The translations under genes were made by a program, and so were the position numbers. A stretch of 64,000 nt of DNA from an uncultured Planctomycetota bacterium. Lineage in GTDB: Bacteria > Planctomycetota > Planctomycetia > Gemmatales > Gemmataceae. The notes under the pieces are model-generated. The model searched no databases. It saw nothing but the letters and a program-made list of their open reading frames with translations, and was not told where the DNA came from. Position 1 is the stretch's first letter. Every line of letters starts with the position of its first letter. The DNA lies in NCBI GenBank assembly GCA_963784995.1, contig CAWATZ010000006.1, positions 200,853-264,852 on the forward strand, written 5' to 3'. Positions 11,118 to 47,915 of the stretch are shown piece by piece.

Positions 11118-11214
11118 GGCCGAACGCCAAGGATTCGATCCGAACTGCCGGCAGACACCGCGACCGTCTGCCAAGCCGGATCGGCAGTTCGGATCGAATC
11201 CTTGGCGTTCGGCC
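11118..11214. repeat. Perfect 33-bp inverted repeat (hairpin) with a 31-nt loop that holds a nested 6-bp hairpin; lies at the 3' end of the CPBP gene
   Basis: Arm 11118-11150 ggccgaacgccaaggattcgatccgaactgccg is the exact reverse complement of arm 11182-11214. The loop contains gcagac...gtctgc. Confidence 0.8.
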
Positions 11215-11221
11215 CGGTTTA

Positions 11222-11911
11222 TCAGGAGTAACCCATCACTGCAACGATATCGAATAATGCGTGCAGACAGATCCCAGGCACCAAGCTCCCTTGCCACAAG
11301 AAAAGGCCAGCAAAGAGCAGCCCGACAACGAAATAGACTGGGAACAGAACCAGCCCAGCGATGCCATGGACAAAGACGAATGCCAGCGTCGCCAAGCCGA
11401 CGGCCCGCCAAGTGCGCATGCCACGCCCCTTCAGGAGACGGATGCTGAACCCGCGGTAAACCAACTCCTCGCAAAACCCCGCAGTGAAACTCATGAAGAT
11501 CCAGAACACTCGTTCGCCCAAAGTATTCGGGGACATCCCCGAGCGCTCCGATAATGGTCCATCGTTGGCGGCCGGGCTTTCGTGCAGGAGAATCAAGGCG
11601 AGACCGGCTACGAGGGGGATTCCAACCATCGCTGCGACGCGGACCGCCGAGAGATCAAGCCCGATGTCGTCCAGTCGCCCGCCTGCCCGCTTGAGAAGCA
11701 CGACGATCAAGGCAACGCTGCCCCAGTGAAGCAGAGCAATCGAGGCCCAGAACGACAGGTAGAATGCGTGGTTGCGCCGGAACCAGAGGCCGACCGACCA
11801 AGGTAAGAAGCTGTTGGCCAGGTAGAGGATCGGTAGCCCGACGAACACGAGCAGCACCTGCCAATGGGGTAAGCTCGTCGCAAACGTCGGAGCGGGTTCC
11901 TTTGTGGCCAT
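11222..11911 (-). CDS. CPBP family intramembrane metalloprotease (CAAX-protease-like)
   Basis: Polytopic membrane protein with the EELVYRG and FxxxH motifs. Confidence 0.8.
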   Translation of the reverse strand: MATKEPAPTFATSLPHWQVLLVFVGLPILYLANSFLPWSVGLWFRRNHAFYLSFWASIALLHWGSVALIVVLLKRAGGRLDDIGLDLSAVRVAAMVGIPLVAGLALILLHESPAANDGPLSERSGMSPNTLGERVFWIFMSFTAGFCEELVYRGFSIRLLKGRGMRTWRAVGLATLAFVFVHGIAGLVLFPVYFVVGLLFAGLFLWQGSLVPGICLHALFDIVAVMGYS

Positions 11912-11960
11912 CTTGAAGCCTCCCAGGGCCGAATAGGGCGTTCAGCCTTTGCCGAGACCG

Positions 11961-12869
11961 TCAGCGCGGCCGCAGCGGCACGTAGACGTCCGTCACCAAG
12001 TCCTCGGGAGGGGTCTCCCGCAGCGAATTGCGAAAGACGACGAACCCCTGGCAATCGGCCGGCTCCCGACCGCTCTGCGGCAGCCAGTCCCCGTACAGGC
12101 GGTCGTACATTTCGTACAGGCCCTCGTAGGGGCCCTTGTGGGTGACGACCGCGTACTCGCCGGCGGGAAGTTCCTGCTTGCCGATCTCCCCCTCCGGCTG
12201 AAAGGGCCGGTCAGTGGAGATGCAGGCATCGTAGCGGAGCTTGTCCCTCGCCGTGACTTCCGGGTTGTCACGGCTAATGCCCACCTTGAGGCTGCGCGGA
12301 CCCAATAGGCCGCGCGCCTTGGCCCAGGTCAGGAGTTTCTCCCAGGCCTTCGCGATTGACTCAGTTTCGTAGGGGCCGATGTGCCGGATGAAAGCGACCG
12401 TCATCGGCGCCATGGTCTGAATGCGGACATCCATCGGGGGACCTCCTCGTTGCACGGGTTTGAAATCTTCCAACCTCCCTTCGGGGAGGTAGCGAACTCG
12501 GGACGGGGCGAGCGAGCGGACCCGCTCGCGCTGCCGCTTGCGGTAGCCTGAGGGCGAGGTGCCGAAGAGCGCCCGGAACGCCCGGGTGAAGGACTCGTGG
12601 GTCTCGTAGCCGGCGTCGAAAGCGATGCCGGTGACCGGCTGGTTGCTGAACAGGAGCCGGTGCGCCGCCCGCTCCAGGCGCAGCCGGCGGACGTGTTCTT
12701 GGACAGACTCGCCGACCATCGCCCCGAAAATGTAGTGAAAGTGATGCGGCGAGAAGCGCGCAACGCGGGCCAGGTCTTCCAACGACAAGGCCTCGTCCAG
12801 GTGCTCTTGAATATGCACCAGGACCCGCAAGACTCGCTCTGTGTACGTCCGCTCGGTCTCGGATCGCAT
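11961..12869 (-). CDS. AraC-family transcriptional regulator with a GyrI-like effector-binding domain
   Basis: N-terminal AraC HTH (FSPHHFHYIFGAMVGESVQEHVRRLRLERAA, HESFTRAFRALFGTSP). C-terminal GyrI-like domain. Confidence 0.8.
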   Translation of the reverse strand: MRSETERTYTERVLRVLVHIQEHLDEALSLEDLARVARFSPHHFHYIFGAMVGESVQEHVRRLRLERAAHRLLFSNQPVTGIAFDAGYETHESFTRAFRALFGTSPSGYRKRQRERVRSLAPSRVRYLPEGRLEDFKPVQRGGPPMDVRIQTMAPMTVAFIRHIGPYETESIAKAWEKLLTWAKARGLLGPRSLKVGISRDNPEVTARDKLRYDACISTDRPFQPEGEIGKQELPAGEYAVVTHKGPYEGLYEMYDRLYGDWLPQSGREPADCQGFVVFRNSLRETPPEDLVTDVYVPLRPR

Positions 12870-12989
12870 CGTCTCCTCCTTGTTCCAGATTATGCCGCCC
12901 GCGTGGTTGGTCTGCTTGACGGTTTTTCCGAAGTTGATCGTTGCTGGCCCGTCGAACCAGGAGGACTGGTGGCCAGGTCGAGAGGAGAA

Positions 12990-13058
12990 AGAGGAGAAAG
13001 GGGACGCATCTCAATAATACATCCTATTCAATTTGTGTTATTGAGATGTGCCCCCCCC
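12990..13058. promoter_or_regulatory. Conserved AT-rich inverted-repeat motif upstream of DUF4058 copy 1
   Basis: gagaaagg..acgcatctcaataa-N20-ttattgagatg. An 11-bp IR in an unusually AT-rich stretch about 100 nt upstream of the start. A near-identical motif sits at 13925-13990. Confidence 0.5.
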
Positions 13059-13157
13059 TTTTGCCTTGCCCCTGCCTGTCCCCCGTTTTCCCTTGTCCCG
13101 AGCTGCTGGGACTGACCGCGCGCGGGATCGTTTAGAATCACTGGGAGGAGAATAGCC

Positions 13158-13887
13158 ATGCCGCTTCGCAACCATTTCCGCGCCTCCGGTGTCTAAACGT
13201 GCCTCATGGGAAGGGTTTCACGTTCAGTGGCCCGCCATGATCGTCCAGCACTTGAGCTTCGTCTTGCCCGACGGCTACGTGGCTGAACCGCGCGTCCATC
13301 TCGGTCCCTACTTCGAGATAGTGACGGCGTTCGAGCGCGCGCAGCCACAGACCGCGACCGCAGCCGCTGGGGATGGCGGCGTTGCCACTGTCGCCTGGAG
13401 CGCGACGCAGCCGCTCCTGGACGTCGAGGCTGATTGGCCGGACCAATACGAGTACGAAGTGCTCGTCTTCGACCAGGAACGCGACCGGCGTCTGGTGGCG
13501 GCGGTGGAGCTGGTCAGTCCAGCGAACAAAGACCGGCCGGAATCGCGGCGGGCCTTGGTGACCAGGTGCGCTGCCCTCCTGCGCCAGGGGGTCGGCGTCG
13601 CCCTCGTGGACCTGGTGACGGTCCGCCGGTTCAACCTCTATGCCGAGCTGCTCGAATGGATCGGGCAAAACGACCCAGCACTGGGGGAGGAGCCCCCGGC
13701 GACTTATGCCGCTGCGCTGCGGTTTCAGAAGCCCGCGCAGCGCACGCATTTGCAAACTTGGGCGTATCCCCTGGTCATCGGCCAGCCGTTGCCGACGCTG
13801 CCGCTCTGGTTGTCGGCTGACCGCAGTATACCCCTGGACTTGGAGGCGAGCTACGAGGACACGTGCCGCCTGCTGCGGATCGCGTGA
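13158..13887 (+). CDS. DUF4058 family protein (PD-(D/E)XK-like fold), copy 1; apparent frameshift at about 13190 right after the start
   Basis: ATG 13158 encodes MPLRNHFRAS, matching the paralog's MPLRDHFRPP, then hits a stop. The body continues in the next frame from GTG 13189. Motif LVSPANKDRPESRR...GVGVALVDLVT. Confidence 0.6.
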
Positions 13888-13924
13888 GACACGAACAGGT
13901 GAACAGCCGGGCCGGTAGAACGGG

Positions 13925-13990
13925 GGGAGAAAGGACGACGCATCTCCAATCACACAATTCGGTCAATTCGTATGATGTGAGATGCGTTTC
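13925..13990. promoter_or_regulatory. Conserved inverted-repeat motif upstream of DUF4058 copy 2
   Basis: gagaaaggacgacgcatctccaat...gtatgatgtgagatgcg. Same architecture and spacing (about 90 nt to the start) as the motif at 12990. Confidence 0.5.
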
Positions 13991-14076
13991 CTTTGTTCTC
14001 GAGGCGACGGCCGCCCCGATGCCACAAGAGAAGAAGTGAGGGCAATCGTGACACAATGGTGGCGAAGGAGGTTCCC

Positions 14077-14808
14077 ATGCCGCTCCGCGATCATTTTCGA
14101 CCCCCGGTGAGTACCCGTGTTTCCTGGGAGGAAATTCATGGCATGTGGCCGGCCCGGATTGTGTTGCAGTTGCACACCGTCCTTCCAAAAGGCTATGTTG
14201 CAGGGCCGAAAATCCACGCCGGTTCGCAAGTCGAAATCGATGTGGCAACATTCGAGCAAGAGGATGCGCCGCGTCTAGAAAGTTCCGAGGAAGATGGCGG
14301 CGCAGCGACCGCTGCCTGGGCGCCGCCCGAGCCGACCGTTGCCGTCGAGACCGAGGTGCCGGATTACGATGAGTACGAGGTCCGCATCTATGACGCGGAA
14401 CGCGGGCGTCGGCTCGTGGCCGCGATCAAGCTGGTCAGTCCGGGGAACAAAGATCGGCCGGAGAAGCGCAACGCCTTCGTCGGCAAATGCGCGGCTCTGC
14501 TCCAAAAGGGGGTTGCCGTCAGCATCATCGACGTGGTTACGCCACGACAATTCAATCTCTATGCCGAGCTGTTGCAGTTTGTGGGACAGAACGACCCGAC
14601 CCTGGGCGAGCCGCTGCCGCATCTCTACGCCACGTCGTGTCGATGGCGGCCACAGGACAAGCGGATGCTGCTGCAAACCTGGTCGTACCCGCTCACGTTG
14701 GGTCATCCGTTGCCCACACTTCCGCTGTGGCTGACGGGGAAGCTGGCGATTCCCCTGGACCTGGAGCAGAGCTACGAACAGGCATGCCGCGATTTGTGGC
14801 TCACCTGA
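14077..14808 (+). CDS. DUF4058 family protein, copy 2 (intact)
   Basis: MPLRDHFRPPVS...LVSPGNKDRPEKRNAFVGKCAALLQKGVAVSIIDVVT. About 55% identical to copy 1. Confidence 0.65.
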   Translation: MPLRDHFRPPVSTRVSWEEIHGMWPARIVLQLHTVLPKGYVAGPKIHAGSQVEIDVATFEQEDAPRLESSEEDGGAATAAWAPPEPTVAVETEVPDYDEYEVRIYDAERGRRLVAAIKLVSPGNKDRPEKRNAFVGKCAALLQKGVAVSIIDVVTPRQFNLYAELLQFVGQNDPTLGEPLPHLYATSCRWRPQDKRMLLQTWSYPLTLGHPLPTLPLWLTGKLAIPLDLEQSYEQACRDLWLT

Positions 14809-14902
14809 GCCCGGCAGAGGCTCGGACATTCCCAGCTCCCTCTTGCGATCCCGCGTCAGGATGCGATAATAAGCTCTACCTGACCCTCCTGGAGTATCCT
14901 GC

Positions 14903-17900
14903 ATGAAACGCATCCTTCCGGCCCTTGCGCTGTGGCTCGCTGCCGCTTCCTGGTTTGTCGCCGCCGATCGTCCCGCACCGACCAAGCCGGATGCGTCCGG
15001 CCCGAAAGTCCAGCAGGTCCAACTCAACGGCCACACCTTTACCCTTCCCGAGGGGTTCGAGATCGAGGTGGCCGCCGGGCCGCCGCTGGTCGATCGGCCA
15101 ATCACGGCCGCCTTCGATGAGCAGGGCCGGCTCTACGTCGCCGACTCGTCCGGCTCCAACGAGAAGACGACCATCCAGCTTCAGAAGAAACCTCACCGCA
15201 TCGTCCGGCTCGAAGACAGCGACGGCGACGGCAAGTTCGACACCCGCGTTGTCTTCGCCGACCAGATGATGTTTCCCGAAGGGACGATGTGGTTTGCCGG
15301 CTCGCTCTACGTCGCGGCCCCGCCGAGCATCTGGAAGCTCACCGACACCGACGGCGACGGCAAGGCGGATCAGTGCCAGGAATGGTTCGAGGGCAAGACG
15401 CTGACTGGCTGCGCCAACGACCTGCACGGCCCCTACCTCGGCCCCGATGGCTGGGTCTACTGGGCCAAGGGGGCCTTTGCTCAACAAACGTATGAGCGGC
15501 CGGGGAAGAAGCCATTCAAGACGCGCGCCTCGCACCTCTTCCGCTGCCGGCCCGACGGCTCCGGGCTGGAGCCGGTCATGACCGGCGGCATGGACAACCC
15601 CATCGACGTGGTCTTCACTCCCGGCGGCGAGCGGATCTTTTCGACCACCTTCTTCCAGCACCCCGCTGACGGCAAGCGTGATGGTCTGATCCATGCCGCT
15701 TACGGTGCCGTTTACGGCAAGGACCATGCCCCCGTCCACGAACACCCCTGGACGTCGCCGGCGCTGATGCCGGTGCTGACGCACTTCGGCCCCGCCGCCC
15801 CGGCTGGCCTGCACCGCTACCAGTCCACCACGTTCGGTCCGGAGTACGCCGACAACCTGTTCGCCGTCCAGTTCAACCTGCGCAAGGTCAGCCGGCACGT
15901 GCTGACCCTGGAGGGAGCCACTTTTCGGAGCCAGGACGTCGATTTCCTCGTCTCAAACAACCACGACTTCCACCCGACGGACGTGATCGAGGACGCCGAT
16001 GGCAGCCTGCTGGTCGTCGATACCGGCGGCTGGTACAAGCTCTGCTGTCCCACGTCGCAGCTGGTCAAACCGGACGTGCTGGGTGCGGTTTATCGCATTC
16101 GCAAGAAGGGATCGCCGAAGGTCGAAGATCCGCGCGGGCTGAAGCTGCGCTGGAAGGACCTCGCGGTCGCCGAACTGGCCCGGCTCCTGGACGATCCCCG
16201 GCCTGCCGTGCGGCAGCGGGCGATTGAGACCCTTGCCGGCAAGGGACGCGAGGCGGCCCCGGCACTGCTGGGCGTCGCGGAAAACAAGACCAGCACGGTC
16301 GAGGCCCGTCGCAACGCTGTCTGGGCCTCGTGCTGGATTGACGAGCCGCTGCTGCGCTCCGTCGCCCGCACCGCCCTGGCCGATCGTGACGAGTCGGTGC
16401 GTCAGGTCGCCCTGCACGTGATCAGCGTCCGACGCGATGGCGAGGCCACTCCGAAGCTGGAGCGAGTCCTGAAGCAGGGCACGGCCCACAACCGCCGGGC
16501 CGCCGCTGAAGCGCTGGGCCGGATCGGGAACGGTTCAGCCGTGCCAGCCATTCTCGAAGCGCTGGCCGACGAGACCAACGATCGCTTTCTCGACCACTCG
16601 CTGACCTACGCGCTGCTGGAGATCGCTGCTCCGGAACGAACGGCAGCTGGCCTCAAGAGCCCGAATCCGCGCGTTCGTCGGGCCGTCCTGACCGCCCTCG
16701 ACCAGATGGAGGGTGGCAAGGTTGACGTGAAAACGGTCGCGGCCGAGATGACCTCACGGAACGAGCCTCTGAAGGAAACGGCGGCGTGGATCGCGGGCCG
16801 GCATCCGGAGTGGGGCGGCGAGCTGGCCGGCCACTTCCGCGATCGGCTGGCCGCCAAGGAGACCGACGCCGGGCGCGAAGACCTGGCCCGGCAGCTTTCG
16901 CGCTTTGCCGGCAACGAGGCGATCCAGACCCTGCTGGCCGATTGCGTGCAGAAAGCGGCCGGCTCGGCGGGAGCCTCGCCCTCCCTGCCGGCCCGGACGG
17001 CCCTCCGCGCCATGGCCGGGGCCCGGATCAAGCAGGCTCCGGAACGCTGGCTGACCGCGCTGACCGCCGCTCTCGCCAGCGCCGACGCGGACCTGGTGCG
17101 CGAGGCCATCCTGACGGTCCGGGCCTTGCCCCTCAAGACCATGCCGCAGTCACTCAGCAACGCCCTGGTCCGGATCGGCAAGGACGAGCGCCGGCCCGAG
17201 ACGACGCGGCTTTCCGCCCTGGCCGCGGTCCCGCCCGGATTGCTGAAGGTCGAGAACGGCCTGCTCGACTTCCTGCTGGCCCGGCTGGATCGCGAGCAGC
17301 CGGTAGCCCCCCGCTCCGCGGCCGTGGAGGTGCTGACGCGATCCGACCTCACGGCGGAGCAGCGGATTCGCCTGGCCGGTGCGCTCAAGACGACCGGACC
17401 GATGGAGGTCGGCCGGCTGCTCGACGCCTTTGCGCGAACGACTGACGAGAAAGTCGGGCTGGCCCTGATCGTCGCCCTGAACGATCCGGCCGTGCGAGCG
17501 GGATTGCGCACCGAGGCGGTCAAACCACGTCTGGAGAAGTACGGCCCCGCCGTGCAGAAGGATGCGGCCAAGCTGTACGCGACCCTGGACAGCGCCCTGG
17601 TCGGCCAGCGGGCGAAGCTGGAGCAGATGCTGGGGTCGATGAAGAACGGTGACATTCGCCGGGGACAGCTGGTCTTCAACAGCACCAAGACGGCGTGTGC
17701 GTCGTGTCACAAGATCGGCTACGTCGGCGGCACAGTCGGCCCCGACCTGACGCGAATCGGGAAGATCCGCAACGAGCGCGACCTGCTGGAGTCGATCGTC
17801 TTTCCGAGCGTCAGTTTTGTCCGCAGTTACGAGCCGGTCAACGTCACCACCAAGGCGGGCAAGCAGCTCAACGGCCTGATCCGCCGGGACAACCCGGACG

Positions 17901-18064
17901 AGATCGTGCTGGCCCTCAGCGGCACCGAGGAGGTCCGCATCAGCCGCAACGACATCGAGGAGATGCACCCCAGCACGCTTTCGATCATGCCCGCCGGGCT
18001 TGACCAGCAACTGACGCTCCAGGAACTCGCCGACCTGGTGGCGTTCTTGAAGGCGTGTCAGTAG
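14903..18064 (+). CDS. PVC-type membrane-bound dehydrogenase-domain / HEAT-repeat / cytochrome c (CxxCH) protein
   Basis: Signal peptide. N-terminal beta-propeller dehydrogenase-like domain (TIGR02604-like). Central HEAT repeats. C-terminal CASCHKIGYVGGTVGPDL heme-binding motif (TIGR02603-like). Confidence 0.8.
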   Translation: MKRILPALALWLAAASWFVAADRPAPTKPDASGPKVQQVQLNGHTFTLPEGFEIEVAAGPPLVDRPITAAFDEQGRLYVADSSGSNEKTTIQLQKKPHRIVRLEDSDGDGKFDTRVVFADQMMFPEGTMWFAGSLYVAAPPSIWKLTDTDGDGKADQCQEWFEGKTLTGCANDLHGPYLGPDGWVYWAKGAFAQQTYERPGKKPFKTRASHLFRCRPDGSGLEPVMTGGMDNPIDVVFTPGGERIFSTTFFQHPADGKRDGLIHAAYGAVYGKDHAPVHEHPWTSPALMPVLTHFGPAAPAGLHRYQSTTFGPEYADNLFAVQFNLRKVSRHVLTLEGATFRSQDVDFLVSNNHDFHPTDVIEDADGSLLVVDTGGWYKLCCPTSQLVKPDVLGAVYRIRKKGSPKVEDPRGLKLRWKDLAVAELARLLDDPRPAVRQRAIETLAGKGREAAPALLGVAENKTSTVEARRNAVWASCWIDEPLLRSVARTALADRDESVRQVALHVISVRRDGEATPKLERVLKQGTAHNRRAAAEALGRIGNGSAVPAILEALADETNDRFLDHSLTYALLEIAAPERTAAGLKSPNPRVRRAVLTALDQMEGGKVDVKTVAAEMTSRNEPLKETAAWIAGRHPEWGGELAGHFRDRLAAKETDAGREDLARQLSRFAGNEAIQTLLADCVQKAAGSAGASPSLPARTALRAMAGARIKQAPERWLTALTAALASADADLVREAILTVRALPLKTMPQSLSNALVRIGKDERRPETTRLSALAAVPPGLLKVENGLLDFLLARLDREQPVAPRSAAVEVLTRSDLTAEQRIRLAGALKTTGPMEVGRLLDAFARTTDEKVGLALIVALNDPAVRAGLRTEAVKPRLEKYGPAVQKDAAKLYATLDSALVGQRAKLEQMLGSMKNGDIRRGQLVFNSTKTACASCHKIGYVGGTVGPDLTRIGKIRNERDLLESIVFPSVSFVRSYEPVNVTTKAGKQLNGLIRRDNPDEIVLALSGTEEVRISRNDIEEMHPSTLSIMPAGLDQQLTLQELADLVAFLKACQ

Positions 18065-18076
18065 AGGTGGGCCGAC

Positions 18077-18115
18077 GCAGCGAGGCCCACCGCGAACCCC
18101 GGTGGGCCTCGCTGC
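18077..18115. terminator. GC-rich hairpin (15-bp stem, 9-nt loop) between two convergent genes
   Basis: gcagcgaggcccacc gcgaacccc ggtgggcctcgctgc starts 13 nt after the TAG at 18064. No U-tract. Confidence 0.5.
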
Positions 18116-18154
18116 GCTCGGCCCACCCTACGGGGCCACTTGGCCATTCGGTAG

Positions 18155-22611: not shown

Positions 22612-22645
22612 CCCAGGGCTCACGCCCTGGCTCGACTCGGGATTG
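22612..22645. repeat. Degenerate partial copy of the family-C element (first part of arm 1)
   Basis: cccagggctcacgccctgg is identical to 37945-37963. The following sequence is only partly similar. Confidence 0.4.
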
Positions 22646-22736: not shown

Positions 22737-23363
22737 ATGAACCCCAAAGCGATCTTCCTCGACAAGGACGGCACGCTCCTGGAGAACGTGCCTTACAACG
22801 TCGATCCGGAACAGGTCCGTCTGCTGCCCGGGGCCGTGGAAGGCCTGCTTCAGCTCCAGTCGGCCGGGTATCGTCTGGTGGTGGTGTCGAATCAGTCGGG
22901 TGTGGCCCGGGGCATGTTCCCGGAGCAGGCCCTGGTTGCCGTCGAGCAACGGCTGCGGAACCTGCTGAGCGCCGCGGGCGTGAACCTGGACCGCTGTTAC
23001 TTCTGTCCTCATCATCCCACGGGAGCGGTGTTGGATTATGCCATCGAGTGCGACTGCCGCAAACCTCGGCCGGGTTTGCTGATTCGGGCAGCACGGGAGT
23101 TGTCTCTCGACCTGGCTCAATGCTGGATGATCGGCGATTCGCCCAGCGACGTCGAGGCGGGGCAACGGGCCGGCTGCCGGACGCTGTTCATCGCCGATCC
23201 GCGCGAACCGCTGCCGCCGGGCATGCCCCAACCGAATGCCATGGTCGCCAACCTTATCGAGGCCGCTCGGCACGTCCTTCTTCCTGCTGCTCGGCTCACT
23301 TCCGCTGGGCCTTCTGTCCCTGGTCCTTTGTCCGATGGAAGGCACTGTAAATCAAGTGCTTGA
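22737..23363 (+). CDS. HAD-IIIA family hydrolase (D,D-heptose 1,7-bisphosphate phosphatase GmhB-like)
   Basis: FLDKDGTL (DxDGT) motif, VVVSNQSG, MIGDSPSD. Confidence 0.6.
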   Translation: MNPKAIFLDKDGTLLENVPYNVDPEQVRLLPGAVEGLLQLQSAGYRLVVVSNQSGVARGMFPEQALVAVEQRLRNLLSAAGVNLDRCYFCPHHPTGAVLDYAIECDCRKPRPGLLIRAARELSLDLAQCWMIGDSPSDVEAGQRAGCRTLFIADPREPLPPGMPQPNAMVANLIEAARHVLLPAARLTSAGPSVPGPLSDGRHCKSSA

Positions 23364-24726
23364 TCCGCCGCACCGGACTTGGGAACTCGCCAAGACCCAC
23401 TTGCTGACTCAGATGGTTGTTGTGCGGAAAGCGATCGACCGCCGCAATCAGTAAGATCGTCCAGACGCCCAGCACGGTTGTCACATATTTTCCATGACTG
23501 GCAAACAGCCGGCCTGCTTGCATCAAACCATAGGAAAGCAGCAGGGCCACTCCCAGCACGCTCACAATGCACTTGTAAGCCAGAAGGGGCACACAGAGGT
23601 AGGGCCGAAACTTGATGACCAGGTGTGTTGTAAATCCCATTCCGATCATCGCGAGCAAGACAAGTGGGATGATCGATTGCGCGCCCGGACTGTTCCAGAC
23701 CTTGCGCAGCGTGCGAGCGAAAGCCCACAGGAACACGACAAAGAACATGCCCGCGTAAAAGTGCCAGTAGAACAGATGGTGCATCGGCACCAGGTGCATT
23801 CCCTCCGGATGATAACCATGCTGTTCCGCAATGATTTTCTTGTCGCCATGATAGTACAGCGAGTTGGAAGAAACAACGAAGGAAGGAAGAAACGTACTCA
23901 CCGCAATGTATGGGTAGGTGATCAGGTTCGAGAGCACGTCTTCGGCAGCCATGATCGGATAGTGATAGGTGAAGATGGTATCCGATTCATGCCCGGGAGT
24001 GAAGTGCTCGCCACTGGAAGGCAGTTTTCCCGCGACGTAGCCAACGGTCACAAGGACGGTGGACAGGGCAACAAAGCGGACCCGGTGGAGATACTGCTTG
24101 CTCAGTTCAGGATGGCGACGCAGCAGCAGATAGAGGAAGGCGCAGCATGTCAGGAGGAACACGCAATAGTCGAGCCACTGCTCCCAGCACAGGGCAAACA
24201 CAATCAGGCTGACCACGAAACCGATCTTCGGGCCGCGCAGTTGCGTGGTGCGCGTTGCCAGTGCGTACAGGTAGAACAGGTTGATGAGCAAGTAGAGGAC
24301 AAACAGCACCCAGAGGTGGCCGCCGCTGTGGACGTAGGAGTAGTTGAACTGGGAACCAAAGCCCAGGCAAATGGCCAGGGTGCTGCTGAAGACTCGCGAG
24401 CGCAGCAGTACCCAGGAGCCAACGTAGGACACGACCACAAGCAGGCCCAGCAGTCCCACAAAGATCCAGGGCCCCGGCACCACCAGGTTCACCAGACCGA
24501 TCAGGGCAAAGCCCGTGGGCGTCCAGCGATAGCAGTCGCTGCCGAAATCGAACGGCAGCAGCAGCTTCCAGGGCTGGGCGACCAGCTTGGGGTCAAGAGG
24601 ATGGTTCAGCTCCCTGGGTCCGGTGGCCAGCGGCAGCCGGAGCAGCAGCCAGAGAAGCAGGATGGGCAGAAGCGGGAGCAAGCCGTGCAACCAGTCGCGC
24701 CTTGGAAGCGGTTGGGCACTGTCCAT
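23296..24726 (-). CDS. Polytopic integral membrane protein (hypothetical; glycosyltransferase-39 / DUF2079-like topology)
   Basis: More than 10 TM helices. Start taken at MDSAQPL (24726). The upstream part of the long ORF overlaps the family-A palindrome and is not protein-like. Confidence 0.5.
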   Translation of the reverse strand: MDSAQPLPRRDWLHGLLPLLPILLLWLLLRLPLATGPRELNHPLDPKLVAQPWKLLLPFDFGSDCYRWTPTGFALIGLVNLVVPGPWIFVGLLGLLVVVSYVGSWVLLRSRVFSSTLAICLGFGSQFNYSYVHSGGHLWVLFVLYLLINLFYLYALATRTTQLRGPKIGFVVSLIVFALCWEQWLDYCVFLLTCCAFLYLLLRRHPELSKQYLHRVRFVALSTVLVTVGYVAGKLPSSGEHFTPGHESDTIFTYHYPIMAAEDVLSNLITYPYIAVSTFLPSFVVSSNSLYYHGDKKIIAEQHGYHPEGMHLVPMHHLFYWHFYAGMFFVVFLWAFARTLRKVWNSPGAQSIIPLVLLAMIGMGFTTHLVIKFRPYLCVPLLAYKCIVSVLGVALLLSYGLMQAGRLFASHGKYVTTVLGVWTILLIAAVDRFPHNNHLSQQVGLGEFPSPVRRIKHLIYSAFHRTKDQGQKAQRK

Positions 24727-24791: not shown

Positions 24792-24870
24792 GCCGAGCCG
24801 CGCACGCAGCGCAGCGGAGTAAGCGGGCTTTCAGCCCGCTTACTCCGCTGCGCTGCGTGCGCGGCTCGGC
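24792..24870. repeat. Family-A palindromic element, copy 1: perfect 38-bp stem, 3-nt loop
   Basis: gccgagccgcgcacgcagcgcagcggagtaagcgggct ttc agcccgcttactccgctgcgctgcgtgcgcggctcggc. The 32-nt core is identical to copy 2 at 47840-47915. Confidence 0.85.
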
Positions 24871-25069: not shown

Positions 25070-26824
25070 ATGAACTATAATCCCGCCAATCCTCTTATCG
25101 TCGTCGCGGATCGCACGGTCCTGGTCGAGGTGGACAACCCTCTCTACGCGGAGGCCCGCGATGCCCTCGCTCCGTTCGCCGAGCTGGAGAAAAGCCCCGA
25201 GCACATCCACACCTATCGTCTGACCCCTCTGTCGCTGTGGAACGCCGCGGCCGCGGGCATGACCGCCGCGGCCATGATCGAAGTGCTGCAGCGCTATACC
25301 AAGTATCCGCTGCCGACCAACATCGGCACTGACATTGCCGACCTGGTCAGCCGCTATGGCCGGGTCAAACTGGTCCGGCACACCGAAGGTGCCACGGGTG
25401 ACGGCAGCGTGCCGCTCCGCCTGGTCTGTGCCGACGTGCCGCTGCTGGAGGAACTGGCCCGACAGCCCAAGGTCCGCGAGCATCTGGGCCCCCGGCTGGA
25501 CAGCACCAGCTTCCAGATTGACGCGGGCAAGCGCGGCGTCCTCAAACAGGCCCTGATCGGGGTCGGCTATCCTGCCGAGGACCTGGCCGGCTACACCGAG
25601 GGAGCGGCGCTGCCGATCCACCTGCGTGAACTGGGCCGAGTGCAGGGCCTGCCCTTCCACGTCCGCGACTATCAGCGCGAGGCCAGCGAGATCTTCTACG
25701 CCGGCGGCGATGCCCGCGGCGGCAGCGGCGTCATCGTGCTGCCCTGCGGAGCGGGCAAGACCATCGTCGGCATCGCCACCATGGCCCTGATGCAGCGCTC
25801 GACCCTGGTGCTGACCACCGGCATCACGGCTGTCAAGCAGTGGCGCCGCGAGATCCTGGACAAGACGGACCTGAGTGAGGATCAGATCTGCGAGTACACC
25901 GGCGAAAGCAAGGAGATTGGCCCGGTCACCCTGGCGACGTATCAGATCCTCACGTACCGCAATGACAGGAACGAGGAGTTCCCGCACTTCCACCTGTTCG
26001 ACCAGCGCGACTGGGGCCTGATCATCTATGACGAGGTCCACCTGCTGCCGGCCCCGGTCTTTCGGGTGACCGCCCAGATCCAGGCCCGCCGCCGGCTCGG
26101 CTTGACCGCCACCCTGGTGCGCGAGGACGGCCGGGAATCGGACGTGTTCAGCCTGATCGGACCCAAGAAATACGATGTTCCCTGGCGCGAGCTGGAGTCG
26201 CGCGGCTGGATCGCCGAGGCGGCCTGCACCGAGGTCCGCATCGGGCTGCCCGAGTCGATCCGCATGGAGTACGCGGTGGCCGAGCAGCGCAACAAGTACC
26301 GCATCGCCAGCGAGAACCCGGCCAAGGAGGACGTGATTGCCGCCCTGCTGGAGCGGCACAAGGATTGCCGGGTGCTGATCATCGGGCAGTATCTGAAACA
26401 GTTGCGCGACTTGCGCGAACGCTTCCAGATGCCGCTGATCACCGGACAGACCGCGAACTCCGAGCGTGAGGACCTTTACGGCAAGTTCCGCCGGGGCGAG
26501 ATCCGGCAGTTGATCCTGTCCAAGGTGGGCAACTTTGCGATCGACCTGCCGGACGCGAACGTACTGATTCAGGTGTCGGGCACGTTCGGCTCGCGCCAGG
26601 AGGAGGCCCAGCGGCTGGGGCGAATCCTGCGGCCCAAGTCGGGTGGCGAGGTGGCCCACTTTTACACGCTGGTGACGCGCAACACCCGCGAGCAGGAGTT
26701 CGCCCACCATCGCCAGCTGTTCCTGACCGAGCAGGGGTACAGTTACCAGATCGTCGATGGGACCGATTTGCTGGCGGGGGCGTCGGCCAACGGGGAGAGG
26801 GCGAAGTGTGCCCAGGCGGGGTGA
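25070..26824 (+). CDS. XPB/ERCC3-like superfamily-2 DNA helicase
   Basis: N-terminal damage-recognition-like domain. Walker A LPCGAGKT, DEVH box, helicase C motifs. Confidence 0.8.
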   Translation: MNYNPANPLIVVADRTVLVEVDNPLYAEARDALAPFAELEKSPEHIHTYRLTPLSLWNAAAAGMTAAAMIEVLQRYTKYPLPTNIGTDIADLVSRYGRVKLVRHTEGATGDGSVPLRLVCADVPLLEELARQPKVREHLGPRLDSTSFQIDAGKRGVLKQALIGVGYPAEDLAGYTEGAALPIHLRELGRVQGLPFHVRDYQREASEIFYAGGDARGGSGVIVLPCGAGKTIVGIATMALMQRSTLVLTTGITAVKQWRREILDKTDLSEDQICEYTGESKEIGPVTLATYQILTYRNDRNEEFPHFHLFDQRDWGLIIYDEVHLLPAPVFRVTAQIQARRRLGLTATLVREDGRESDVFSLIGPKKYDVPWRELESRGWIAEAACTEVRIGLPESIRMEYAVAEQRNKYRIASENPAKEDVIAALLERHKDCRVLIIGQYLKQLRDLRERFQMPLITGQTANSEREDLYGKFRRGEIRQLILSKVGNFAIDLPDANVLIQVSGTFGSRQEEAQRLGRILRPKSGGEVAHFYTLVTRNTREQEFAHHRQLFLTEQGYSYQIVDGTDLLAGASANGERAKCAQAG

Positions 26825-26835: not shown

Positions 26836-26919
26836 CCCCGGGTTGCGCTGCGCTCCACCCGGGGCTTTAGTCCCAACACCCGGAGTAAAGCCCCGGGTGG
26901 AGCGCAGCGCAACCCGGGG
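26836..26919. repeat. Family-B palindromic element: perfect 34-bp stem, 16-nt loop, between the XPB gene and the downstream ORF
   Basis: ccccgggttgcgctgcgctccacccggggcttta ... taaagccccgggtggagcgcagcgcaacccgggg. Shares gcgctgcgc and ggagtaa(a)gc motifs with family A. Confidence 0.8.
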
Positions 26920-37944: not shown

Positions 37945-38043
37945 CCCAGGGCTCACGCCCTGGTCTATTGACTGCCGCCCCTTCGGGGCTGATTCTTAGC
38001 CCCGAAGGGGCGGCAGTCAATAGACCAGGGCGTGAGCCCTGGG
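37945..38043. repeat. Family-C palindromic element: perfect 46-bp stem, 7-nt loop, in the divergent promoter region upstream of the ECF sigma gene
   Basis: cccagggctcacgccctggtctattgactgccgccccttcggggct gattctt agccccgaaggggcggcagtcaatagaccagggcgtgagccctggg. Partial copies at 2647-2692 and 22612-22645. Confidence 0.85.
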
Positions 38044-38119
38044 GTGGTTTCCGGTTGACTCCATTGGCGAAGCCGCTATCGTCCGCCGGGATTTTGCTCC
38101 GACCCTGGAGGACACGGAC

Positions 38120-38634: not shown

Positions 38635-38667
38635 AAACCTGCCCACTTTGCGCATAACACCTTGACA

Positions 38668-38759: not shown

Positions 38760-40052
38760 ATGCCCAGCACCTGTGTGGTTGGACTGCAGTGGGGCGATGA
38801 GGCCAAGGGCAAGATCGTTGACCTGTTGACGGAGCAGCACGACCTGGTGGTCCGCTACAACGGCGGGGCCAACGCCGGCCATACCGTCGTCGCCGGCGAG
38901 CAGACCTTTCGGCTGTCGCTGCTGCCGACGGGAGTGCTTCGTGGGCACATCACCTCGGTGATCGGCAACGGCGTCGTGGTCGATCCGTTCCGCTTCGAGC
39001 AGGAAATCGACGACATGCGCAAGGCCGGCGTGGCCATCAGCCCCGAGCGGCTTTTCGTCAGCAACCATGCCCACGTCATCTTCCCCTACCACAAGAAGGA
39101 AGAGGAGCTGCGCGAGCAGTCGGCCGGCCAGGCGCTGGGCACCACGATGCGCGGCATCGGCCCCTGCTACCAGGACAAGCTCGGCCGGAGCCACGCGGTC
39201 CGCGTCGGCGAATTGCTGGACGAGGGCCATCTGCGCTCGCGCTTGACCGAGATCGTCGCCTTCAAGAACCGGCTGCTGCGCGGCCTGAGCCCCAACCTGG
39301 AGCCGTTCTCCGCCGACCAGCTGCTCGACCAGTATCGGGCCAGCATCCAGACGCTGCGTCCCCACGTCACCGACACGGTGTCGCTGCTGCACAGGGCCCT
39401 CGGCCAGGGCAAGCGGCTGCTGTACGAGGCGGCGCAGGGCAGCCTCCTTGATGTGGACCACGGCACCTATCCCTTCGTGACCAGCTCCAACAGCTCCGTG
39501 GCCGGCGTCTGGAGCGGCTCGGGAGTGCCGGCTCGCCACTTGACCCGGATTGTCGGCGTCATCAAGGCGTACAGCACCCGCGTCGGCGCCGGCCCCTTCC
39601 CCACCGAGCTGAACGACGGCCCGCAGGGGATCGGCCAGCGACTGCGCACCACGGGACGCGAGTATGGCGTGGTGACGGGGCGACCCCGGCGCTGTGGGTG
39701 GTTTGACGCGGTGGCGGTGCGCTACTCGGCAGCCCTGAACGGGGCGGACGAGCTGGCCCTGATGCTGCTGGACGTGCTGAGCGAGGTGGACGAGGTCCTC
39801 ATCGCGACCGCCTACGACCTCGACGGCCAGCGGCTGGAGGAGTTCCCGGCCGATTCGCACTTGCTTCAGCGCTGCCGTCCCGTGTATGAGGCCCTTCCGG
39901 GCTGGCGCACGGACATTTCCGGCGCCCGCCGGCTGGAAGACCTGCCGGCCAACGCCCGGCGTTACCTGGATCGCCTGGCCGAGCTGCTGCGGCTGCCCAT
40001 CTCGATTGTCTCGGTCGGCCGGGATCGCTGTCAGACGCTGTTTACCCGGTAG
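38760..40052 (+). CDS. purA: Adenylosuccinate synthetase
   Basis: QWGDEAKGKIVD P-loop, GGANAGHTVV, full-length conservation. Confidence 0.95.
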   Translation: MPSTCVVGLQWGDEAKGKIVDLLTEQHDLVVRYNGGANAGHTVVAGEQTFRLSLLPTGVLRGHITSVIGNGVVVDPFRFEQEIDDMRKAGVAISPERLFVSNHAHVIFPYHKKEEELREQSAGQALGTTMRGIGPCYQDKLGRSHAVRVGELLDEGHLRSRLTEIVAFKNRLLRGLSPNLEPFSADQLLDQYRASIQTLRPHVTDTVSLLHRALGQGKRLLYEAAQGSLLDVDHGTYPFVTSSNSSVAGVWSGSGVPARHLTRIVGVIKAYSTRVGAGPFPTELNDGPQGIGQRLRTTGREYGVVTGRPRRCGWFDAVAVRYSAALNGADELALMLLDVLSEVDEVLIATAYDLDGQRLEEFPADSHLLQRCRPVYEALPGWRTDISGARRLEDLPANARRYLDRLAELLRLPISIVSVGRDRCQTLFTR

Positions 40053-40131
40053 CCGCAAGCTTTAGCTTGCGTGAGGCTTGCTGTAATGTAGCGCAGGCTA
40101 AAGCCTGCGGCTACTGTCGGAGGAGCCGCGA

Positions 40132-40899: not shown

Positions 40900-40911
40900 A
40901 GGAGCGCCGCA

Positions 40912-41796: not shown

Positions 41797-41834
41797 ACGC
41801 GAAAGGCAGGGAGTGTGTCCAGATTGGATAACCC

Positions 41835-41919
41835 CCAGGCGAGCGGCGCGGCGTCAGCCCGCCGGTATCGGTGCCAGCGTCGGATACACCGGCGGGCTGA
41901 CGCCGCGCCGCTCGCCTGG
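41835..41919. repeat. Perfect 32-bp-stem palindrome (21-nt loop) between cdsA and the PhoH-like gene
   Basis: Arm 41835-41866 ccaggcgagcggcgcggcgtcagcccgccggt is the exact reverse complement of arm 41888-41919. Confidence 0.8.
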
Positions 41920-41943
41920 CAGCACCCTCAGTGAGTTCAAGAA

Positions 41944-42912: not shown

Positions 42913-43040
42913 TCCGAAACGTAGGGCGGGCTGTCGCAGCGAGGCCCGTCGGCAGAGTTCCGCGCCCGGTGGGCCAAGCGCTCGGCCACCTACCGCCCCG
43001 GAACGTCGGGAGTCGCTGCCGGAAAGCAAAGGAACTGCTA

Positions 43041-44827: not shown

Positions 44828-44924
44828 GGTCCGGGGTCGTTTGTTCAGCGCCCGTCGAAATGCGATCTGCCGCACAACAGCAGAACGGTGGTTGCCCGGC
44901 GGCTCCTGCACTTCACGTGTATCC

Positions 44925-45105
44925 GCAAATAAAACACTCCTGGCACGCCATGCAGCGAAATGCGGCCAGCCTTGCCCGAATACCCTGGCAGATGGCAGGC
45001 AGACAGAAAAATGACCCTCAAAGACGCCCGTCCGACAGCCAGAGGCACGCTCTGGCCTGTCCGCCACTTCAAAAGAATTGGCAGGCAGGGCAGGCAGAGA
45101 AGTGG
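44925..45105 (-). repeat. Conserved noncoding element, copy 2 (inverted relative to copy 1 at 10872-11050)
   Basis: Reverse complement aligns with 10872-11050, with a 50-nt core at about 80% identity (catttttctgtctgcctgccatctgccagggtattcgggcaaggctggcc). Contains ggcaggcag repeats. Confidence 0.45.
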
Positions 45106-45290
45106 AGACCTGTCGCGCCTCTGCTCCTTCCGGAACGGTGAAAGACACGCGAAATCGGTTCCCCTTTCCCTTCCGGAACGGTAGAATCCTGTCAGCATCG
45201 TCTGGCCCCGGAGTGCTCACGGGCTGGCGTCCGACCAGAGCAGTCGGCCCGGACTCCGTGAAGGAACCGGGCGCGAGGGGGAGCAAGGGC

Positions 45291-46184
45291 ATGCAGTGGC
45301 ACCCGATCCTGGCTCAGCTGTTGCGGCCCCTGGTGCAGGACTACTACGAGGTCCAGACCGATTTGCCGGTTGGCGATCTGCCGCGCCAGGCCGACGTTGT
45401 CCTGCTGCGACGCCGGGCGGCCGATCCTCCCTTTGTGGGCATCTGGCGGCATCTGCGCGTCTGGAACGTGCTGGAGTTCAAGGGGCCCAGCGACGACCCG
45501 GCCTTGCGCGATCTGGATCTGCTGCTGGAGCTGGGGCTGGGCATCGATCGGCGGCTGAACGAGCAGCGGCAGGAGCAGAAAGAGCCGTTGCTGAAACGTG
45601 TCGAGGTCGCCTGGTGGTTTCTCGCCAACCACCTGGGACGGCGGTTTCGGGCCGAGGTGGAAGCGGTGGTGGGATCACCCTTGCAGCAACTGGGCGAGGG
45701 GCTTTGGTCCTGTCCAGCGCTGGGGCGGGTGCTGTACCTGATTAGTCGGGACGCCTTGCCGGTGGAGCGGGAGAGCGTGCCGCTGCATCTGGTGACCGAG
45801 GAACCGTTGGAGCGGGTGGAGGCCCTGGCCCGCGTGCTGGTGCAGCAACCGGGCTTCTGGGATCTGTACGGGGGCTGGCTCGCCCAACTCAACCCCGAAA
45901 TCTGGGAGGAGCTTCAAACCATGATCCGCAAGATGGGTGCCGAGCCCAATCTCGATCTGCGCTGGCTGATCGATCAGGTCGGGCTCAAGCAAGTCATCGA
46001 CCAGGTTGGGCTCAAACAGGTCATTGACCAGGTGGGGTTCAAGCAGATCATCGACTTGGTGGGGTGGCAAGAGGTGTTCCAGACAGTTCCCCTTGGAGAA
46101 GTCATCGCCGCCATGGGAATGGACTGGTTTGTATCTCAGCTAAGCCCGGAACAACTCCAGGAGCTGAAAAGCCGCTTGCCTTGA
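45291..46184 (+). CDS. PD-(D/E)XK nuclease-family protein (Rpn/YhgA-like 'transposase_31') with C-terminal DUF4351-like region and tandem 9-aa repeats
   Basis: D...E.K motif (QADVVLL...NVLEFKGPSDD). C-terminal IDQVGLKQV x4 encoded by 27-bp tandem repeats at about 45955-46062. ...SPEQLQELKSRL tail. Confidence 0.5.
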   Translation: MQWHPILAQLLRPLVQDYYEVQTDLPVGDLPRQADVVLLRRRAADPPFVGIWRHLRVWNVLEFKGPSDDPALRDLDLLLELGLGIDRRLNEQRQEQKEPLLKRVEVAWWFLANHLGRRFRAEVEAVVGSPLQQLGEGLWSCPALGRVLYLISRDALPVERESVPLHLVTEEPLERVEALARVLVQQPGFWDLYGGWLAQLNPEIWEELQTMIRKMGAEPNLDLRWLIDQVGLKQVIDQVGLKQVIDQVGFKQIIDLVGWQEVFQTVPLGEVIAAMGMDWFVSQLSPEQLQELKSRLP

Positions 46185-46596
46185 GGCCGCTCCCAGCCTC
46201 AGTGGACCAAGCCGCCTCCAGCATTCCCGGAAAAAATCCCGCAGCAACCATTGCCCTGCACGCCTCGCCCCTCTATCATATCTTCCTGACAATCTGGTGA
46301 GTATCTTATCCAGAGTGGCTGAGGGTACAGGCCCTGCGATGCCACAGCAACCGGCTTCCCCCAGGAAGTGCTGGTGCTACCTCCTGCCCGGGACTCCCGG
46401 GAGAGATAAGATCGTGTGCCTCACACGCCTCTTCTTCTCGATCAGACCCGCGCGATCGACCCCGATCACCGCGGTCTTCCTTCCTGGATGATACACACCT
46501 CCACAACAATGACCGCCAGGACCAGCGCGAGTGCCTCGGCCTGGCCGTGAATTGCTTAAGGGAGGGTCCTTCGTGTCGTCTTCTTTTGTCCGCGGA

Positions 46597-47826
46597 ATGA
46601 AGTGCCGGCTGTGCGGCAAGCTGTATCCGGTCGGTCCGATCCAGTTCTGCGAGGAGGATTTCGGCCCCCTCGAGGTCGATTACGATTACACCGCCATCGC
46701 CGAGGCCGTCAGCCGGGAAAAGATCGCCCATCGGCCCTGGAACATGTGGCGCTACGAGGAGCTGCTGCCCCTGGACCGGGAGCCGACCGTTGGCACGCAG
46801 GTCGGGGGCACGCCGTTGCTCAAGGCGGATCGGCTGGCCGCCGCCCTGGGCGTCGAGAAGCTCTGGCTCAAGAACGACGCCGTCAACTTCCCCACGCTGT
46901 CGTTCAAGGACCGCGTCGTGGCCGTAGCCCTGAGCAAGGCCAAGGAAATGGGCTTCACCACCGTCGGCTGCGCCTCCACCGGCAACCTGGCCAACAGCGT
47001 CGCCGCCAACGCCGCCGCGGCGGGTCTGAGCAGTTACATCTTCGTGCCGGCCGATCTGGAGCGCTCCAAGATCCTCAATACCAGCGTCTACGGAGCCCAT
47101 CTGATCGGCGTCCGCGGCACCTATGACGAGGTCAACCGGCTCTGCACCCAGGTGGCCTTCAAGTTCGGCTGGGCGTTCGTCAACATCAACCTCCGGCCGT
47201 TCTACGCCGAGGGGTCCAAGTCGATGGGCTTCGAGATCGCCGAGCAGCTGGGCTGGCGCACCCCACAGCACGTCGTCTGCCCGATGGCCGGCGGCAGCCT
47301 GATCGGCAAGATCCACAAGGCGTTTCACGAGCTGCACAAGGTCGGCCTGCTGGAGCAGGAGCCCCGCTGCAAGATGTACGGGGCTCAGGCTAGCGGGTGT
47401 AGTCCGATCAGCACGGCGGTCAAGAACGGCTGGGACTCCCATCGCCCGGTGCGCAAGCCCTGCACCATCGCCAAGTCGCTGGCCATCGGCGACCCGGCCG
47501 ACGGCTACTTCGCTGCCCGGGTCATCCGCGAGACCGGCGGCTGGTCCGAGGACGTCTCCGATCAGGAGATCGCCCAGGCGATGGTCCTGCTCGGCCAAAC
47601 CGAGGGCGTCTTCGCCGAGACGGCCGGCGGCGTCACCGTGGCCGTGGCCCGCAAGCTGATCGAGCAGGGGCGGATTCCGCGCGACGAGGAGATCGTCCTG
47701 TGCATCACCGGCAACGGCCTCAAGACGCAGGACGCCGTGGTGGACTACCTGGAAAAGCCCGCGGTCATCGGGCCGACCCTGGAGGAGTTCGAGCCGCTGG
47801 TGGCCGGGGAAGCGGTGTTGGTGTAA
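46597..47826 (+). CDS. thrC: Threonine synthase (variant with an N-terminal Zn-ribbon)
   Basis: CRLCGK...C zinc ribbon, PLP-lysine motif (PTLSFKDRVVAV) and ThrC conservation. The start could be GTG 46573. Confidence 0.8.
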   Translation: MKCRLCGKLYPVGPIQFCEEDFGPLEVDYDYTAIAEAVSREKIAHRPWNMWRYEELLPLDREPTVGTQVGGTPLLKADRLAAALGVEKLWLKNDAVNFPTLSFKDRVVAVALSKAKEMGFTTVGCASTGNLANSVAANAAAAGLSSYIFVPADLERSKILNTSVYGAHLIGVRGTYDEVNRLCTQVAFKFGWAFVNINLRPFYAEGSKSMGFEIAEQLGWRTPQHVVCPMAGGSLIGKIHKAFHELHKVGLLEQEPRCKMYGAQASGCSPISTAVKNGWDSHRPVRKPCTIAKSLAIGDPADGYFAARVIRETGGWSEDVSDQEIAQAMVLLGQTEGVFAETAGGVTVAVARKLIEQGRIPRDEEIVLCITGNGLKTQDAVVDYLEKPAVIGPTLEEFEPLVAGEAVLV

Positions 47827-47839
47827 ACTGCGTTCGTCC

Positions 47840-47915
47840 GAGCCGCGCACGCAGCGCAGCGGAGTAAGCGGCCCGCAGGAAGACCGCTTACTCCGCTGCG
47901 CTGCGTGCGCGGCTC
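47840..47915. repeat. Family-A palindromic element, copy 2: perfect 32-bp stem, 12-nt loop, between thrC and the MoaD-like gene
   Basis: gagccgcgcacgcagcgcagcggagtaagcgg cccgcaggaaga ccgcttactccgctgcgctgcgtgcgcggctc. Confidence 0.85.

Follow-up and report, generated by a model that had tools for sequence, protein, structure and literature searches.

Long, perfectly paired palindromes recur along a 64,000-nt stretch of an uncultured Gemmataceae bacterium (contig CAWATZ010000006.1 of assembly GCA_963784995.1; this whole stretch is called the window below), and they raise the question of whether such hairpins are mobile DNA, structured RNA or the product of a local process that rebuilds symmetry. 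An initial annotation had listed six of them. A repeat search and an independent recomputation of complementarity reproduced their coordinates and their perfect stems, which measure 33, 38, 34, 46, 32 and 32 bp in their order along the window. The statement that these stems exceed neutral expectation also held: 100 shuffles of the window that preserved its dinucleotides yielded no perfect stem above 14 bp, and hence none of 16 bp, against nine stems of at least 16 bp in the window itself (loops of up to 60 nt were allowed in the comparison). Single-strand folding gave -42 to -69 kcal/mol for the elements (z-scores relative to shuffles, -11.6 to -18.8). Chance is thus ruled out as the origin of the long perfect stems. 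Perfect pairing applied to the six listed hairpins and did not extend to further elements that the annotation had lacked (48561-48631, 18061-18131, 40049-40114, 13000-13055, 52157-52257 and a solitary arm at 2647-2692); because these less perfect elements had been missed, the impression of uniform perfection was partly a selection effect. Proteins including XPB assign the window to Gemmataceae, the closest XPB in the protein collection being 94% identical. The elements are referred to below as families A to F (Table 1).

Copies were sought in the assemblies of other genomes as well as in the window and related loci (designated by L numbers), with 1.29 Mb sampled (1.25 Mb in the motif and arm-pair scans). 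A scan of species-representative genomes with the 24-nt core of family A returned at least 62 stretches; among the matches listed, at least 30 lay in one Gemmataceae metagenome-assembled genome (MAG) and about 14 in another, and further ones in a MAG labelled Singulisphaera, a Gemmatales MAG and bins labelled Alcaligenaceae and Alphaproteobacteria. Two IMG/VR contigs carry the family as well. Its consensus consists of a 35-nt arm, TCCGAGCCGCGCACGCAGCGCAGCGGAGTAAGCGG, a loop of 3-18 nt and the reverse complement of the arm. Nearly all copies are inverted doublets, the exceptions being some that are ended by a contig edge and two true singlets (solitary arms in L008 and L013). The outer edge of the arm is sharp, with T at position -9 in 79 of 89 copies and random sequence beyond it, and the arm logo reads T, C, then C in 74, G in 7, T in 6 and A in 2 copies, followed by G, A, G and the stem, so that the arm varies most at the second base of CCGA. 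No target-site duplication (TSD), direct repeat or conserved target was found at the flanks of about 50 copies. Loop sequence divides the copies into subfamilies, each specific to a genome (GGCCATTCGG and CGTCTGTCCG for SMAG_U3862, CCTGCCAGCCAAAC for the "Singulisphaera" MAG); these are present in both orientations, common within a genome and different between genomes. Since loops are shared among the copies of one genome, the hairpin is evidently copied whole there, whereas between genomes only the arms are held constant. For the two copies in the window, the annotation had noted an identical 32-nt core and different loops; their arms agree at 34 bases, and their loops are unrelated. Five short contigs were returned in full (L018, L034, L037, L038 and L045), and each has a family-A element at one of its ends, as expected if assembly breaks at the repeat; these repeats therefore fragment short-read MAG assemblies.

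Other families recur too. Family D arms are found in L013 (30/30 identical), L025 and L001, and family F occurs at the orthologous junction in L086/L087 and at another site in L074. In the first 542 kb of window and related DNA, 38 perfect stems of at least 22 bp are not of family A, so long perfect hairpins are a general property of these genomes. An apex pattern, GCCCGCCGGT-N-ACCGGCGGGC, was discarded as a search probe: its 54 matches in viral contigs reflect a generic GC-rich stem and are uninformative.

Comparison of orthologous junctions shows that these sites hold different elements, or none, in different genomes. With ThrC as query, 80 metagenomic loci were retrieved, and the thrC-thiS-116aa-thiF operon is conserved in the Gemmataceae-like loci among them. 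The spacer between the 116-aa gene and thiF measures 2-5 nt in 11 relatives and elsewhere 75-180 nt, with hairpins of at least five types; the thrC/thiS spacer follows the same pattern of empty and hairpin-filled states. The junction between XPB and the next small gene spans 121 nt in the window, including element B, and 18-19 nt in two relatives (the one with the 94%-identical protein and L002), while in L001 it holds another element, a GTAG doublet. Orthologous junctions of relatives were thus either empty or ALTERNATIVELY filled, and the sequence at the same loci differs between genomes, the opposite of what fixed structural elements would display. The spread in the manner of repetitive extragenic palindromic (REP) sequences or miniature inverted-repeat transposable elements (MITEs) that the annotation had proposed is borne out to this extent, in that arms do occur at other loci and in other genomes, recurring at unrelated sites, and orthologous junctions are empty or occupied by other families.

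Family C proved to be catalogued already, as an RNA. In an Rfam scan, both arms of the hairpin at 37945-38043 matched Acido-Lenti-1 (RF01687) on opposite strands with 49.9 bits each (gathering score, 37), and the solitary copy at 2647-2692 scored 49.7 bits; all three fit the whole 46-nt model (positions 1-46/46) above threshold. Rfam files the family as a small RNA (sRNA) of Acidobacteria and Lentisphaerae, whereas the copies here lie in a Gemmataceae genome, two of them paired as a perfect inverted doublet and one inserted in frame into a gene. In its seed alignment (Weinberg 2010, PMC2864571), copies form clusters 70-200 nt apart in Lentisphaera, number about 12 in Koribacter and two in Rhodopirellula baltica; because seed copies are clustered or multiple, the distribution looks like that of a repeat family. 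On the opposite strand, the unit has the design of a REP, namely xTAG (ATAG here) before a GC-rich stem with a GTGA or GTAA loop. The solitary unit lies in frame within a PSCyt2/PSD1 (DUF1549/DUF1553) gene (open reading frame (ORF) 1763-3154), where it adds about 16 amino acids (approximately LAPKGRQSIDQGVSPG) to the PSD1/DUF1553 domain. Two paralogues (L035 and L005) have a gap of about 14-17 residues exactly at this unit. As they lack the segment, the unit is best regarded as an intragenic insertion, judged by paralogues rather than orthologues. In lying in frame inside a coding gene and lengthening its product, it resembles the Rickettsia palindromic elements (RPE) and intragenic REPs, from which it differs in being a single case. 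The inverted doublet, the copy inside an ORF and the clusters in the seed alignment together suggest that Acido-Lenti-1 behaves as a REP-like DNA repeat and not as an RNA gene, which argues against an sRNA role.

We consider it likely that the hairpins of the window belong to several families of short (70-100 nt) mobile palindromes that coexist, are non-autonomous and are of the type of REPs and of their inverted doublets (REPINs), each designed as an inverted doublet of a 30-46-nt unit or as a "double-foot" palindrome. The copies show a palindromic master, transfer of the whole hairpin with its loop to intergenic sites, no TSD and arms that decay independently of each other; the traits shared with REPs and REPINs are thus a many-copy, mostly intergenic unit, an inverted doublet that is copied whole and the absence of TSDs. 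The resemblance to the REPIN/RAYT system, in which RAYT denotes the REP-associated tyrosine transposase (Bertels & Rainey 2011, PMC3116915), covers the two inverted units, the 70-100-nt hairpin and the intergenic, multi-copy occurrence, together with populations of master and mutant copies in each genome that comprise singlets, doublets and clusters. It includes the "double-foot" REPs (Quentin et al. 2018, PMC6006769), whose GTAG/CTAC feet are found on two elements of the window, and a RAYT-like gene flanked by GTAG REPs in a Gemmataceae relative. The window's elements differ in that their stems are longer and often perfect, in that several families have no GTAG foot and in that their enzymes are as yet candidates; moreover, several genera and families have the same family-A arms, whereas a REPIN is as a rule specific to its lineage. 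A further likeness is to TIRtrons, the loci of TIRYT genes with their terminal inverted repeats (TIRs) (Di Nocera et al. 2013, PMC3733652), which have long inverted-repeat units, often as dimers, no GTAG tag and an association with Y1 transposases; R. baltica is cited there as rich in TIRYT-type systems. Prompted by the same study, Acido-Lenti-1 was considered as the TIR of the Koribacter aba1552-type RAYT. This candidate was rejected: no match was obtained, even at E<=1, in two homologous TIRtrons (L066, 68% identity; L147, 87%), and their two-hairpin TIRs, GTATCAGGGCAGCGCTTCAGCGCTGCC...GGGCTTCAGCCC, match no family of the window either.

The elements accordingly add new families to a known kind and do not represent a kind of their own. 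The view that no such repeat class had been described in Planctomycetes is not supported: the 46-nt arm is RF01687, with R. baltica in its seed alignment, GTAG REPs with RAYT/TIRYT genes are known from the same species (PMC3733652), and class 3 Y1 repeats have been reported (PMC6006769). For these particular Gemmataceae families, we found no description in the literature.

Several observations weigh against the REP/REPIN assignment. The arms of family A have no hairpin of their own, unlike those of classical REPs, and they are 100% conserved across bacterial families, whereas REPINs normally co-diverge with their host. In the DNA sampled, families B and E are each represented by one copy. Neither the window nor the 1.29 Mb of related loci yielded a Y1 transposase gene, apart from loci fetched by a RAYT query; the search combined tblastn with 13 RAYT/TIRYT sequences (supplement of PMC3733652) and scans for the HUH...Y motif in the window and 1.25 Mb, and it recovered its positive controls and nothing else. 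Nor was any RAYT seen that is flanked by arms of family A, B, D or E, so that an enzyme link for these four families is a matter of inference. The divergent RAYT-like gene mentioned above (L148 6001-6582), a homologue of R. baltica RAYT rba11751 with 60% identity from a Gemmataceae MAG, encodes a protein below curated thresholds (NCBIfam REP_Tyr_transpos, E=2e-7 and 30.9 bits at a cut-off of 80; Pfam Y1_Tnp, E=0.47).

The L148 gene has clusters of GTAGCCGAAGTCGCCAGACTTCGG REPs and inverted doublets on both sides and thus forms a REPtron, whose REP sequence differs from those of the window's families. The same REP type, with a compensatory change in the stem, constitutes a perfect 29-bp hairpin in another Gemmataceae MAG, L004. 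Within the window, GTAG/CTAC feet are confined to 18061-18131 and 40049-40114, with the variants ATAG in Acido-Lenti-1 and TTAG in family F; families A, B, D and E have none. Class 3 Y1 transposases, described mainly from Planctomycetes and Acidobacteria, have repeats on their flanks that combine a CnGA foot with high copy number and atypical secondary structure (PMC6006769); family A, which begins T-C[C/T/G/A]GA-G, resembles them in this tetranucleotide. The class 3 motif (NHVH ... YV[VI]xEQ) did not occur in the motif scan of 1.25 Mb, and no transposase gene adjoins the solitary family-A arms in L008 and L013. On the mechanism we would propose, the elements are copied in trans as single-stranded DNA by HUH-Y1 (IS200-like) transposases that recognise the hairpin and a short 5' foot. 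RAYT-type enzymes would serve the xTAG-footed families (18061, 40049, 48561 and Acido-Lenti-1), and class 3 Y1 enzymes of Planctomycetes may serve the CCGA/CnGA-footed family A. Constraint by enzyme recognition would keep arms identical across genera while loops drift, and possible effects on the host, such as uncoupling of genes, supply of stop codons, addition of 16 amino acids or barriers at RNA 3' ends, would be by-products.

A bolder version of this proposal, which we regard as tentative, holds that family A is more than an ordinary REPIN, being mobilised by class 3 HUH-Y1 enzymes and either long-lived or horizontally moving, and that Acido-Lenti-1 should be reclassified as REP-like mobile DNA. 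The family-A arm is invariant across Gemmataceae, Isosphaeraceae-labelled and possibly proteobacterial MAGs, and its loops evolve freely. The matches in proteobacterial bins may represent genuine cross-phylum occurrence or, alternatively, bin contamination. Direct tandem arrays of family-A arms were observed in L055 (6688-6948, period 41 nt) and L039 (26-267, period 109 nt) and also in L015 (396). The array contigs are binned as Alphaproteobacteria or Alcaligenaceae; L055 contains a TRAP DctM gene, and the Pfam content is not diagnostic of misbinning. One subfamily (L026, L056, L064, L039, L040 and L015) has an extra 5-20 nt in the second arm, for example CCGCTTACTCCGC-GAGTA-CGCTGCG..., which gives an asymmetric, branched hairpin.

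Long inverted repeats around a short, variable core would also be the architecture of MITEs, that is, deletion derivatives of DDE-type insertion sequences (ISs) whose arms are the IS terminal inverted repeats and which a DDE transposase moves, and DDE transposase genes are present in relatives. We nevertheless find this origin improbable, because the roughly 50 family-A copies have no TSD and their flanks are random up to the terminal T. In addition, among arm pairs with a spacing of 300-3000 nt in 1.25 Mb, none encloses a transposase gene, and none another gene in the geometry of a TIRtron, apart from the RAYT positive control, which was recovered; and the GTAG/xTAG feet of several families are typical of Y1 substrates.

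The elements could instead be immobile, functional RNAs under selection (sRNAs, hairpins that stabilise or process mRNA, or factor-independent terminators). This would accord with the Rfam match and the covariation in its seed, with the GNRA-like tetraloops that arms often have, and with the established ability of E. coli REPs to stabilise upstream mRNA (summarised in PMC6006769). The position of the hairpins is likewise compatible with it. In a survey of hairpins of at least 20 bp and at least 85% pairing in GC-rich loci, with approximate gene calls based on codon bias, 93 of 151 lay between co-directional genes, 15 between divergent and 13 between convergent genes (121 between two called genes), seven inside genes and 23 at locus edges. 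Among sense-strand mismatches, however, G·U is as frequent as A·C (30 vs 29), and since decayed copies show no preference for G·U, there is no sign of selection on pairing in a transcript. No T-tract follows any of the long stems, and a terminator scan flagged none of the long hairpins. Two of them (24792 and 37945) occupy divergent promoter regions, where no 3' end is needed. Many relatives have empty orthologous junctions, and Acido-Lenti-1 occurs in both orientations within one hairpin and also inside an ORF. Selection for an RNA role as the primary explanation therefore seems unlikely to us, and a secondary RNA effect may exist alongside DNA mobility. Three hairpins of a relative (L001 12716-12791, 16087-16176 and 19689-19772) gave sub-threshold Rfam matches to animal and plant microRNA precursor families, which are predictable false positives that reflect long perfect stems.

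The initial annotation had also offered a mechanism that regenerates symmetry, such as template switching. On this view, a single arm would be made palindromic in place by such switching or by snap-back synthesis, or gene conversion between the arms would correct the mismatches of an extruded hairpin. Solitary arms, which could be its substrates, do exist (2647 in the window; L008 and L013), and in some copies the stem extends 1-3 bp past the family consensus into unique sequence, an extension that matches chance expectation. The substitutions speak against it. In the 33 complete family-A doublets, 61 departures from the consensus affect one arm only and two are mirrored, i.e. 2 of 63; only nine of the 33 are perfect over all 35 bp, and many doublets retain 1-4 unrepaired mismatches. 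Loops common to the copies of a genome further imply that a doublet passes on whole instead of being rebuilt at every site. Because arm substitutions are almost never mirrored, the symmetry goes back to palindromic masters. A perfect copy is a young one, and decay runs arm by arm; no local symmetrising process is needed, and we hold it to be very unlikely. Artefacts of assembly or sequencing, such as chimeric fold-back reads, can be practically discounted: some library preparations do generate palindromes, but the same family with the same ends is found at many loci inside long contigs of dozens of independent assemblies from different projects.

Table 1 Palindromic elements and related repeats of the window, with their structure and genomic setting (a dot stands where no strand is assigned)
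Element	Position	Strand	Structure	Setting
Family A, copy 1	24792-24870	.	38-bp perfect stem, 3-nt loop	Divergent region between gene 23296-24690 (-) and XPB 25070-26824 (+)
Family A, copy 2	47837-47918	.	Arms TCCGAG...GCGG and CCGC...CTCAGA, 12-nt loop; 32 bp perfect at 47840-47915, 35 bp with one mismatch over 47837-47918	Inside operon, junction of PALP (thrC-like) and ThiS genes
Family B	26836-26919	.	34-bp perfect stem, 38 bp with one mismatch; arm with own hairpin (CCCCGGGT-13 nt-ACCCGGGG) followed by GGAGTAAAG	From XPB stop codon to next small gene
Family C	37945-38043	.	Inverted doublet of full-length Acido-Lenti-1 (RF01687), 46-bp perfect stem, 7-nt loop	Divergent region upstream of ECF-type sigma factor gene
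Solitary Acido-Lenti-1 unit	2647-2692	-	45/46 identical to arms at 37945	Within ORF 1763-3154
Partial Acido-Lenti-1 copy	22612-22630	+	19 nt identical to first hairpin of unit	
Family D	41835-41919	.	32-bp perfect stem; arm is CCAGGCGAGCG, GC-rich stem with GTCA loop, GGT	cdsA/phoH junction
Family E	11118-11214	.	33-bp perfect stem, 31-nt loop holding nested hairpin	7 nt downstream of 3' end of Rce1-like gene 11222-11911 (-)
Family F	48561-48631	.	30-nt arms, 97% complementary, 27 bp perfect, TTAG foot	Junction of 116-aa gene and ThiF gene
GTAG...CTAC "double-foot" REP doublet	18061-18131	.	32-nt arms, 78% complementary, own hairpin in each arm (GGTGGGCC-10 nt-GGCCCACC)	3' end of gene 14903-18064
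Imperfect REPIN	40049-40114	.	Inverted pair of canonical GTAG REPs, GTAGCCGCAAGCTTTAGCTTGCG ... CGCAGGCTAAAGCCTGCGGCTAC	3' end of purA
Inverted repeat (candidate member only)	13000-13055	.	22-nt arms, 86% complementary, GGGG ends, AT-rich core	Divergent intergenic/promoter region
Inverted repeat, tandem-repeat type	52157-52257	.	23-nt arms of tandem CACAGAGGA units, 87% complementary, 55-nt spacer	Directly after FGE-sulfatase gene

The genes flanking the hairpins are those that the initial annotation had named (CTP_transf_1 and PhoH, PALP and ThiS, XPB and its Helicase_C_3 partner, and the ECF-type sigma factor). Of the two motifs that it ascribed to families A and B in common, GGAGTAA(A)GC is indeed present in both; gcgctgcgc is confined to family B, family A having just the 8-mer cgctgcgc. 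The design of the element at 41835 is widespread: a GGCGA[GA]CG head precedes a GC stem with a GNNA loop, and GGT follows. At three sites, the upstream gene takes its stop codon from the TAG of the foot (GTAG at 18062-18064 in gene 14903-18064 and at 40050-40052 in purA; TTAG at 48569-48571 in the 116-aa gene), and since the foot serves in this way, the 3' ends of three genes have been reshaped by insertions.

Some further features were noted along the window. The repeat at 13000-13055 is loosely similar to the GGGGWSAS-type TIRs reported beside TIRYT genes (PMC3733652). The hairpin at 52157-52257 belongs to a distinct type with arms of 7-9-nt tandem repeats (CACAGAGGA, GTGACGA, GATTGCG or GGAGTGA), found in relatives as well (L001 12709-12798 and 16094-16177, L002 18274-18344, L047 3080-3139). 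Repeats of the CCACAGAG type recur in intergenic spacers of several relatives, and the tandem type is present in spacers of L073, L081 and L086/L087. The Acido-Lenti-1 doublet upstream of the sigma factor gene has TTGACT in its linker, and sigma-70-like -35/-10 sequences, which are consensus matches only, overlap or adjoin it in that divergent region at 37992-38020 (-) and 38055-38082 (+). A SAM-I riboswitch (RF00162, 81.5 bits) at 46303-46412 (+) precedes the operon genes 46597-49699, which encode a PALP (thrC/cysM-like) enzyme, a ThiS-type sulfur carrier, a 116-aa protein and a ThiF-type activating enzyme. This operon looks like a pathway of the methionine/homocysteine type that depends on a sulfur-carrier protein and is under SAM control.

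To our knowledge, research on REP/REPIN systems has dealt almost entirely with Proteobacteria. The Gemmataceae stretch studied here has at least six palindromic families side by side, and the same operon junctions hold different families in different relatives. Three aspects are the most unusual: family A is conserved to the base across genera, many families coexist and turn over at the same operon junctions, and there is evidence that an Rfam "sRNA" behaves as mobile DNA. In practical terms, such elements break short-read assemblies, can supply stop codons or add peptide segments, and produce false "sRNA" or microRNA-like matches in RNA-family scans. If the bolder proposal is true, family A would be the first tractable family of substrates for the barely characterised class 3 HUH-Y1 enzymes, and Acido-Lenti-1 would be REP-like mobile DNA able to enter genes in frame. 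The families together offer a natural system in which to study the substrate choice of Y1 enzymes, the persistence of elements and their effects on operon expression in Planctomycetes.

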